From NCBI RefSeq assembly GCF_044324785.1, contig NZ_CP172127.1: a stretch of 64,000 bases of DNA. One strand, 5' to 3'. This DNA is from Escherichia coli. GTDB taxonomy: Bacteria; Pseudomonadota; Gammaproteobacteria; Enterobacterales; Enterobacteriaceae. Both the position numbers and the translations under genes were made by a program. The notes beneath the pieces are model-generated. The model searched no databases. It saw only the letters and a list, made by a program, of their open reading frames with translations, and was not told where the DNA came from. This document shows, in pieces, positions 58,558-58,990 of this stretch; within the stretch, counting starts at the first letter, position 1, and each line of letters begins with the position of its first letter.

Positions 58558-58575
58558 GTTATGTTATAACATAAC
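58558..58575 (+). promoter_or_regulatory. Zur box: perfect 18-bp palindrome GTTATGTTATAACATAAC
   Basis: Read directly in sequence 12 bp upstream of ykgM; matches the Zur operator consensus (GTTATGTTATAACATAAC-like); ykgM-ykgO are known zinc-repressed ribosomal paralogues. Confidence 0.75.
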
Positions 58576-58586
58576 AGGCGAAAATA

Positions 58587-58850
58587 ATGAAACCCAATAT
58601 CCATCCTGAGTATCGTACTGTGGTGTTCCACGACACCAGTGTTGATGAGTACTTTAAAATCGGCTCGACTATCAAAACAGACCGTGAGATTGAGCTGGAT
58701 GGCGTAACGTATCCGTACGTAACAATTGATGTCTCTTCGAAATCGCACCCGTTCTATACAGGGAAGCTGAGAACAGTGGCATCAGAAGGAAATGTTGCAC
58801 GGTTCACCCAACGTTTTGGTCGTTTTGTTAGCACGAAAAAGGGGGCATGA
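58587..58850 (+). CDS. ykgM: zinc-independent ribosomal protein L31 paralogue (type B)
   Basis: 87-aa [26 protein letters not shown]... matching RpmE2/YkgM; lacks the CxxC zinc ribbon. Confidence 0.92.
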
Positions 58851-58990
58851 TGAAAGTCCTTAACTCTCTGCGTACCGCAAAAGAACGCCATCCAGACTGT
58901 CAGATTGTGAAGCGAAAAGGACGGCTGTATGTGATTTGTAAATCTAATCCACGTTTTAAGGCCGTTCAGGGTCGTAAGAAAAAACGTTGA
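58850..58990 (+). CDS. ykgO: ribosomal protein L36 paralogue
   Basis: Not in the ORF track (<60 aa); translated by hand: [46 protein letters not shown] (46 aa); ATG overlaps ykgM TGA (TGATG). Confidence 0.9.

Follow-up and report, generated by a model that had tools for sequence, protein, structure and literature searches.

The closest described system is the ykgM–ykgO operon of E. coli K-12, and both the operon and the switch model have been described by Rasmussen 2022 (PMC9825181). The K-12 operator, L31p, is the most palindromic Zur operator and has the lowest apparent Kd, with repression of approximately 560-fold in vivo (Gilston et al. 2014, PMC4219657); Zur binding to it is Zn-dependent, with an apparent Kd of 0.025 x 10^-18 M^2 (PMC4219657). 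A ykgM-lacZ fusion is derepressed approximately 1000-fold in a zur mutant or in the presence of TPEN (Aseev et al. 2020, PMC7297116). In Yersinia pestis, the ykgM–rpmJ2 pair is likewise a Zur-repressed L31B–L36B bicistron (Li et al. 2009, PMC2706843), with a Zur box inside the stretch of the core promoter that is footprinted with DNase I, and its repression is ascribed to blocked entry of RNA polymerase (PMC2706843).

We analyzed one such locus in a 64,000-nucleotide stretch of E. coli DNA (the window), for which an earlier note, made from the letters of the DNA, had read a zinc-sparing ribosomal operon at 58558–58990. These coordinates match exactly the interval that opens with a palindrome and closes with the stop codon of ykgO. 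The region is almost certainly the E. coli ykgM–ykgO (rpmE2–rpmJ2) operon with its Zur operator, and none of the observations speaks against this overall reading. The operon is already known and nothing here is new in kind; it is K-12 ykgMO as carried by an E. coli lineage that has diverged somewhat. Megablast placed the region in about 5,080 of 5,426 complete E. coli genomes, where it is always annotated as ykgM / ykgO. The closest genome is that of strain N3 (99.7%), and nearly all others fall at 95–99%. The window as a whole is ordinary E. coli chromosome, with the gene order fdeC ... rclA ... ykgR–ykgM–ykgO–ykgL–ecpR and 99.1% identity to N3 across 24 kb. The features of the locus are collected in Table 1.

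Table 1. Observed and predicted features of the ykgM–ykgO locus, in positions of the window.
Feature	Position	Strand	Basis or remark
Predicted −35 (TTGAAA) of the ykgMO promoter	58525..58530	+	sigma-70 scan
Predicted −10 (TATCCT), ending 4 nt before the Zur box	58548..58553	+	sigma-70 scan
Expected Zur footprint, ~30 bp	roughly 58552-58581		
Zur 20-mer	58557-58576		
Zur operator core, perfect palindrome GTTATGTTATAACATAAC	58558..58575	no strand	sequence, pattern and matrix scores, K-12 identity
Likely ykgM Shine-Dalgarno core AGG (in ACAGGCG), abutting the box, 8 nt before the ATG	58576..58578	+	inferred
ykgM (rpmE2), type B Cys-free ribosomal protein L31 (bL31B), 87 aa	58587..58850	+	Pfam, NCBIfam
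Shine-Dalgarno-like AAGGGGG for ykgO, within the ykgM 3' end	58839..58845	+	sequence reading, inferred
ykgO (rpmJ2), type B ribosomal protein L36 (bL36B), 46 aa + stop	58850..58990	+	Pfam, NCBIfam, RefSeq
3' hairpin cluster, probable atypical terminator region, common to the convergent ykgL pseudogene	58985..59077	+	fold, inverted repeats
Hairpin 1	58985-59004		spans the ykgO stop
Hairpin 2	59019-59037		perfect 9-1-9 palindrome
Hairpin 3	59039-59077		17-bp stem, then UUUC

The two products were assigned from profile searches and alignments. YkgM, whose gene ends in TGA at 58848–58850, matches Pfam Ribosomal_L31 (8.9e-25) and the NCBIfam 'type B L31' model NF002462 (122.9 bits, cut-off 86). It contains no cysteine, with D, S, S and S aligned to the zinc ligands C16, C18, C37 and C40 of K-12 RpmE, and it is identical over residues 1–68 to chain D7 of the E. 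coli ribosome structure PDB 6I7V. YkgO matches Pfam Ribosomal_L36 (4.7e-19) and NCBIfam NF002021 (91 bits, cut-off 70), with position 1 of the latter profile on the methionine encoded at 58850, and, as far as the residues are modelled, it is identical to chain C5 of PDB 6I7V. Of the four RpmJ zinc ligands, YkgO retains two (C14 as C17 and C27 as C30), while C11 aligns to H14 and H33 to F36. Judged by these alignments, YkgM and YkgO are 'C-minus' paralogues. The locus differs from K-12 at six positions in ykgM and two in ykgO, and as all eight differences are synonymous, both proteins are identical to their K-12 counterparts. This identity, and scores that exceed the NCBIfam cut-offs of both type B models, bear out the reading of the locus as a zinc-sparing ribosomal substitution operon.

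The palindrome ahead of ykgM reads GTTATGTTATAACATAAC, from G58558 to C58575, and an inverted-repeat search returned its arms, GTTATGTTA and TAACATAAC, as 100% complementary with a spacer of 0. Even when three mismatches are allowed it has a single match in the window, compared to a mean of 0.04 in shuffled sequences. Together with its flanks (GG...AGG), the 18-mer is identical to the K-12 ykgM (L31p) operator region; the earlier note had called a perfect 18-bp Zur palindrome at this place, and its sequence is exact. Eleven bases (58576–58586) separate the palindrome from the ykgM ATG at 58587, the A of which is the 12th base after it, in keeping with the distance of 12 bp given earlier.

Palindromy by itself was rejected as evidence, as Markov-1 simulations yield a mean of 0.32 perfect 18-bp palindromes per 64-kb window and at least one in 26% of windows. 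What stands above chance is the match to the Zur operator and the position of the palindrome, not its palindromy. A functionless AT-rich chance palindrome, or the operator of another Fur-family regulator (e.g. Fur), would account both for this frequency and for the AT-rich, superficially Fur-box-like appearance of the site, but would leave its identity to the experimentally characterized K-12 Zur operator unexplained.

The 18-bp skeleton RNNNYRNNRYNNYRNNNY (Gilston 2014) is matched at 18 of 18 positions by inspection, and the structure-based 20-mer TGWNAYRWTATAWYRTNWCA (Gilston 2014) at 19 of 20, the site being the sole match to the latter in the window at up to two mismatches. Used as a detector, the bare RNNNY skeleton was rejected as non-discriminating, with 227 window matches versus 280 expected. 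The earlier note had proposed a scan with a Zur weight matrix, and we carried this out in leave-one-out form using a symmetrized 24-bp matrix trained on the K-12 znuC, zinT and pliG operators, with ykgM excluded. The ykgM site came first in the window, with 19.28 bits and rank 1 of approximately 128,000 positions and strands. In 100 simulated windows the best score per window was 13.6 +/- 1.8 bits, the largest being 19.64, such that at least one of the 100 reached the score of the ykgM site. A shifted, overlapping match of the same box (58560–58583) scored 11.45 bits. The next independent score, 14.5 bits at 44343, lies within the simulated range, and the matrix thus revealed no second Zur site above chance in the window. 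With three training sites the test is crude, but the ykgM site passes it.

A scan of one genome per species found the exact 18-mer at at least 120 loci in alpha-, beta- and gamma-proteobacteria, whereas uniform base composition would give approximately four matches (298 Gb / 4^18); the median G+C of the listed loci is 0.49. On each side of every site, the first ORF of at least 60 aa that reads away from it was taken, and the resulting 192 ORFs were scored against Pfam. Among the 18-mer matches listed, these flanking ORFs comprise COG0523/cobW (30 of 192), Fur-family regulators (14), ABC ATPases (13), TonB-dependent receptors (9), ZnuA (8), Peripla_BP_2 (7), FolE2 (6), L31 (6), ZinT (4), DUF1826 (3) and ZrgA (2). 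The exact 18-mer also stands beside zinc genes in Bradyrhizobium, Pelagibacter, Thalassospira and others. Since these neighbors make up the canonical zinc-starvation regulon, context too marks the 18-mer as a Zur operator. Some of them, namely the TonB-dependent receptors and Peripla_BP_2, are possibly iron-related, which is what a Fur operator would predict, but zinc-specific families dominate (COG0523, ZnuA, ZinT, FolE2, L31/L36 paralogues and ZrgA). Letter for letter, the tightest of the Zur sites measured in K-12 recurs before zinc-starvation genes in alpha-, beta- and gamma-proteobacteria, and this reuse across Proteobacteria makes the 18-mer a good single-sequence probe for Zur regulons. 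Training an improved matrix on the at least 120 exact-match loci was rejected as circular.

Conservation within Escherichia was assessed with ten sequences: this window, N3, K-12, five strains across the identity range, a divergent lineage (L109) and E. albertii (L012). All 18 positions of the box are invariant in all ten, while variation appears within 6 nt upstream (58552 and 58556) and within 4 nt downstream (58579 and 58580). An 18-mer that is held constant between varying flanks adds to the case against a chance palindrome or a site for Fur or a similar regulator, and that reading is effectively refuted. We therefore assign 58558–58575 as the Zur operator on the strength of its sequence, with Zur binding and repression resting on the published work with the identical K-12 sequence.

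The only sigma-70-like match in 58300–59300 is TTGAAA-17-TATCCT, with 9 of 12 positions. At the −35 position, TTGAAA, TTGATA and TTGTAA are found in E. coli, the divergent lineage L109 and E. albertii L012, respectively, and the 17-nt spacer diverges; the full pairs are TTGATA/TATCTT in the divergent lineage and TTGTAA/TATTCT in E. albertii. Hexamers that are kept while the spacer changes lend modest phylogenetic support to the predicted promoter. The C at 58552 that makes the −10 TATCCT is absent from the nine other Escherichia sequences sampled, and the other E. coli sampled have TATCTT. A full-text literature search found no mapped transcription start or promoter for E. coli ykgM, only the map for Y. 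pestis (PMC2706843). On the TTGAAA/TATCCT model, transcription would start near 58560, which would place the box at about −2 to +16, and the 30-bp footprint would extend into the −10. The box itself contains an extended −10-like element, TGtTATAAC (58562–58570), and it is conceivable that this is used instead; the leader would then be approximately 10 nt long and the arrangement would mirror that of Y. pestis. Zur would occlude RNA polymerase under either promoter, a mechanism that has been stated for both systems (PMC4219657, PMC2706843).

All Escherichia sampled retain the AGG that directly follows the box. A second role of the palindrome as RNA was considered, in the form of a 5'-terminal hairpin by the Shine-Dalgarno sequence that tunes mRNA stability or mediates autoregulation by YkgM. 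A modest hairpin of 7 bp (−6.1 kcal/mol, z = −2.2) is indeed predicted for a leader that starts at G58558, and L31p is reported to repress rpmE via a 5'-UTR hairpin (PMC9825181). The hairpin needs a transcription start at or before 58558, however, and becomes negligible when the start is moved 3 nt downstream (−2.0 kcal/mol, z = −0.3). Supplying bL31 in trans was without effect on ykgM-lacZ (PMC7297116), and the same 18-mer precedes many genes of unrelated kinds, with a spacing that differs between them, as a DNA operator would. A search of 57800–59500 at a permissive threshold matched no Rfam family that would represent a known leader RNA; a hit to folP RNA was rejected as chance-level (20 bits versus a gathering score of 99). 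Taken together, these data make an RNA role very improbable.

A mechanism is proposed in which the palindrome acts as DNA. With zinc in sufficient supply, the 18-bp inverted repeat at 58558–58575 would be occupied by two Zur dimers loaded with Zn; the repeat spans the predicted transcription start and lies directly before the ribosome-binding site, and bound Zur would thereby block initiation by RNA polymerase. When zinc is scarce, Zur would leave the operator, and a bicistronic mRNA with a short leader would be made. Translation of this mRNA would give the Cys-free L31 paralogue YkgM and YkgO, the L36 paralogue without a full zinc site, and in the ribosome these two would stand in for the L31 and L36 that bind zinc. 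The binding of Zur, the repression and the exchange of ribosomal proteins are carried over to this strain from published K-12 work on the identical operator, while the exact transcription start and the geometry of occlusion are predictions for this locus, as are the translational coupling and the terminator discussed below.

The two genes meet in GGGGCA-TGA-TGAAAG. The TGATG at 58848–58852 gives a one-base overlap between the ykgM stop and a ykgO ATG at 58850–58852, as the earlier note had claimed, but the start on this overlap is ambiguous as read from the window, for a second in-frame ATG at 58847–58849 also overlaps the ykgM TGA (ATGA). The six-frame ORF list accordingly holds an 87-aa ORF at 58587–58850 and a 47-aa ORF at 58847–58990, the latter being called owing to the ATGATG that this strain carries where the genes meet. 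Comparison with other genomes favors 58850. The junction is CATGATG in this strain, CGTGATG in K-12, CGTAATG in strain R1 and CAATGA in E. albertii, and in R1 and E. albertii the codon preceding the MKV start is no start codon. Every L36B orthologue examined starts with MKV. The spacing from AAGGGGG is 4 nt to the ATG at 58850 versus 1 nt to that at 58847. These variants, the MKV starts and the Shine-Dalgarno spacing together make the annotated 46-aa start the better call, and the additional codon of the 47-aa ORF is an artefact that stems from a synonymous change of GCG to GCA in ykgM.

RefSeq places ykgO at the equivalent of 58850–58990 in N3, K-12 and five further strains. The comparison with annotated reference genomes that had been suggested thus agrees, in N3 and K-12, with a 46-aa gene that ORF length filters miss and that had been read correctly; its frame is intact in the sequence, where a disruption would have counted against it. 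For ykgM, the start region reads ATAATG here versus ATGATG in K-12, which leaves the annotated start as the only candidate in this strain. Natural variants settle both start codons, with ATAATG for ykgM, and GTAATG in R1 and CAATGA in E. albertii for ykgO.

The earlier note had gone on to state that the two genes are translationally coupled. The overlap geometry behind this statement is present and conserved, but the coupling itself had been deduced from that geometry. An overlap or near-overlap of stop and start codons is an arrangement in which termination–reinitiation is generally efficient. With a one-base overlap and a Shine-Dalgarno sequence inside ykgM, ribosomes that finish ykgM would probably reinitiate on ykgO. 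A literature search found no experiments on ykgM–ykgO translational coupling. Across seven L31B–L36B loci from six lineages, the position of the L36B ATG ranges from −1 to +6 nt when counted from base 1 of the L31B stop, with junctions in the form of ATGA, TGATG, TAATG (Aliivibrio) or spacers of 1 or 3 nt (Moritella and Enterovibrio). A purine-rich AAGG(A/G)GG precedes the junction at six of the seven loci, the exception being Aliivibrio, which has only AAGG (printed context ggtaaagta).

YkgO could also be translated independently from its own Shine-Dalgarno sequence, in which case the one-base overlap would be mere gene compaction. The strong AAGGGGG 4 nt ahead of the ATG at 58850 would suffice for this, and no stable structure that occludes it is predicted in the junction RNA (MFE −7.0 kcal/mol, z = +0.69). 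Overlap is absent in Moritella and Enterovibrio, and L36B stands alone directly behind the same Zur box at two further loci, in Morganella (L037) and in a proteobacterial MAG (L018). On the other hand, in none of the six lineages does the start lie more than 6 nt from the upstream stop, and the overlap is retained where the stop has changed, as in strain R1 (TGA to TAA) and in Aliivibrio (TAATG). Independent initiation thus seems the less likely of the two, and the conserved geometry suggests that ykgM and ykgO are probably coupled in function.

Downstream of ykgO, the hairpin cluster folds with −37.2 kcal/mol (z = −6.6), and none of 200 shuffled sequences was as stable. The features expected of a terminator are mixed: the stem is AU-rich and is followed by only UUU(U)C. 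A scan of the region for consensus Rho-independent terminators called none, as the U-tract is short, and strong hairpins with a poor U-tract make this a probable terminator only. The ykgL gene lies here in convergent orientation, at about 59025–59252, and is disrupted as in N3. RNA-seq has identified ykgL, ykgM and ykgO as the three most calprotectin-induced genes (PMC12279244); the induction of ykgL could most simply reflect an antisense signal from the 3' end of ykgMO or read-through.

The operon had been put forward as a positive control for regulatory calls made from raw sequence. It is a valid one, as operator, coordinates, small gene and junction were all correct, and it matters only as a calibration point for such sequence-only calls.

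Compared to K-12 ykgM–ykgO (b0296–b4506), the locus has the same neighborhood, with ykgR upstream and ykgL and ecpR/matA downstream, and the 18-mer with its GG/AGG flanks, the −35, the TGATG and the downstream hairpins are identical or near-identical. The two differ by approximately 3.6% at the nucleotide level. The −10 is TATCTT in K-12 and TATCCT here, and the leader is CAGGCGAAAATAATG here versus CAGGTAAAAATGATG in K-12, hence the single candidate ATG for ykgM. Where K-12 has CGTGATG at the junction, CATGATG introduces an extra in-frame ATG before ykgO here, and ykgL is disrupted here and in N3, unlike in K-12. The Y. pestis bicistron differs in the placement of its box, which the mapped transcription start puts over the −10, whereas the box in E. 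coli is predicted to lie just downstream of the −10 and over the start.

The operator can also be set against the consensus sequences of other groups. For gamma-proteobacteria, the classical consensus is given as an odd palindrome of 23 bp, GAAATGTTATA-N-TATAACATTTC, which the ykgM site fits only as two overlapping offset half-matches; these correspond to the two-overlapping-dimer picture of Gilston 2014 (PMC4219657). A closer likeness is found in the alpha-proteobacterial boxes, for which the consensus of Panina et al. 2003, as quoted in PMC2706843, is GTAATGTAATAACATTAC / GATATGTTATAACATATC; in that quoted form these 18-bp boxes share the length, the even symmetry and the ATGTTATAACAT core. 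The same logic, as cited in PMC7297116 and PMC2706843, operates in Bacillus subtilis, where YtiA (RpmEB) is a Zur-regulated, zinc-free L31 paralogue that is derepressed when zinc runs short and then displaces the L31 that binds zinc. The B. subtilis system differs in that its Zur box is a 9-1-9 repeat, TAAATCGTAATNATTACGATTTA, and in that the gene is monocistronic, with no linked L36 paralogue.

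Only two perfect palindromes whose arms are 8 nt or longer occur in the whole 64-kb window, the Zur box and a second one 3' of ykgMO, so that the operon is flanked by them, one on each side. The second palindrome lies 28 nt beyond the ykgO stop codon, where it forms the central one of three strong hairpins and extends into the convergent ykgL at the end that holds the stop codon of that gene; its K-12 counterpart has a single base change. This palindrome could be a mere piece of a bidirectional terminator, or it could be a protein site.

The ykgL gene itself is intact in K-12, R1 and RM9131. 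In N3, which is near-identical, and in several further strains it is annotated as "frameshifted". According to a published RNA-seq study, ykgL is induced >1000-fold together with ykgMO (PMC12279244). Because ykgL is antisense to the 3' end of ykgMO, this signal probably reflects read-through or 3'-UTR reads.

Features neighbouring ykgMO in the window
Feature	Position	Strand	Remarks
Truncated NADH:flavin oxidoreductase pseudogene fragment	57434-57640	+	Annotated as such in N3; farther upstream than ykgR
ykgR, 33-aa small membrane protein gene	58122-58223	+	363 nt 5' of ykgM, same strand
Perfect palindrome GTCTGATTA-A-TAATCAGAC	59019-59037		
ykgL, broken	~59025-59252	-	Short ORFs 59143-59250 and 59060-59143

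The second-best independent score of the Zur position weight matrix in the window, 14.5 bits for TATGACAAATGATAATCTTTCATC at 44343-44366, lies within the spread of the maxima from simulated windows (13.6 +/- 1.8), and this match is therefore probably due to chance. Among the matches listed from other genomes (L006-L125), which are a lower bound on a higher true count of exact 18-mer loci, the E. coli operator sequence recurs several times within single genomes of Moritella sp. JT01 and PE36 (at least 3-4 loci in each), Castellaniella, a Burkholderiaceae MAG and Advenella. One listed record, a Brevinema andersonii MAG (L110), is non-proteobacterial.

Within E. coli, about 350 of the 5,426 complete genomes lack any match to the operon, and 13 operon matches are located on plasmids. 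In strain UTME-3 (L133, NZ_CP168984.1 4206269-4207610), an IS3-family element takes the place of ykgM together with the 5' portion of ykgO, and what is left of ykgO is a truncated L36B pseudogene. In N3, the closest relative of the window, ykgM (L001, 4288-4551) carries a CCG to CAG change that gives P55Q within the conserved SHPFYTGK motif of YkgM, whereas the window encodes the standard sequence.

The predicted -10 hexamer of ykgMO also varies. A C at position 58552, which is private to the window and might slightly change the strength of the derepressed promoter, gives TATCCT, in contrast to TATCTT in N3, K-12 and the five further E. coli sampled; the corresponding hexamer in E. albertii is TATTCT.
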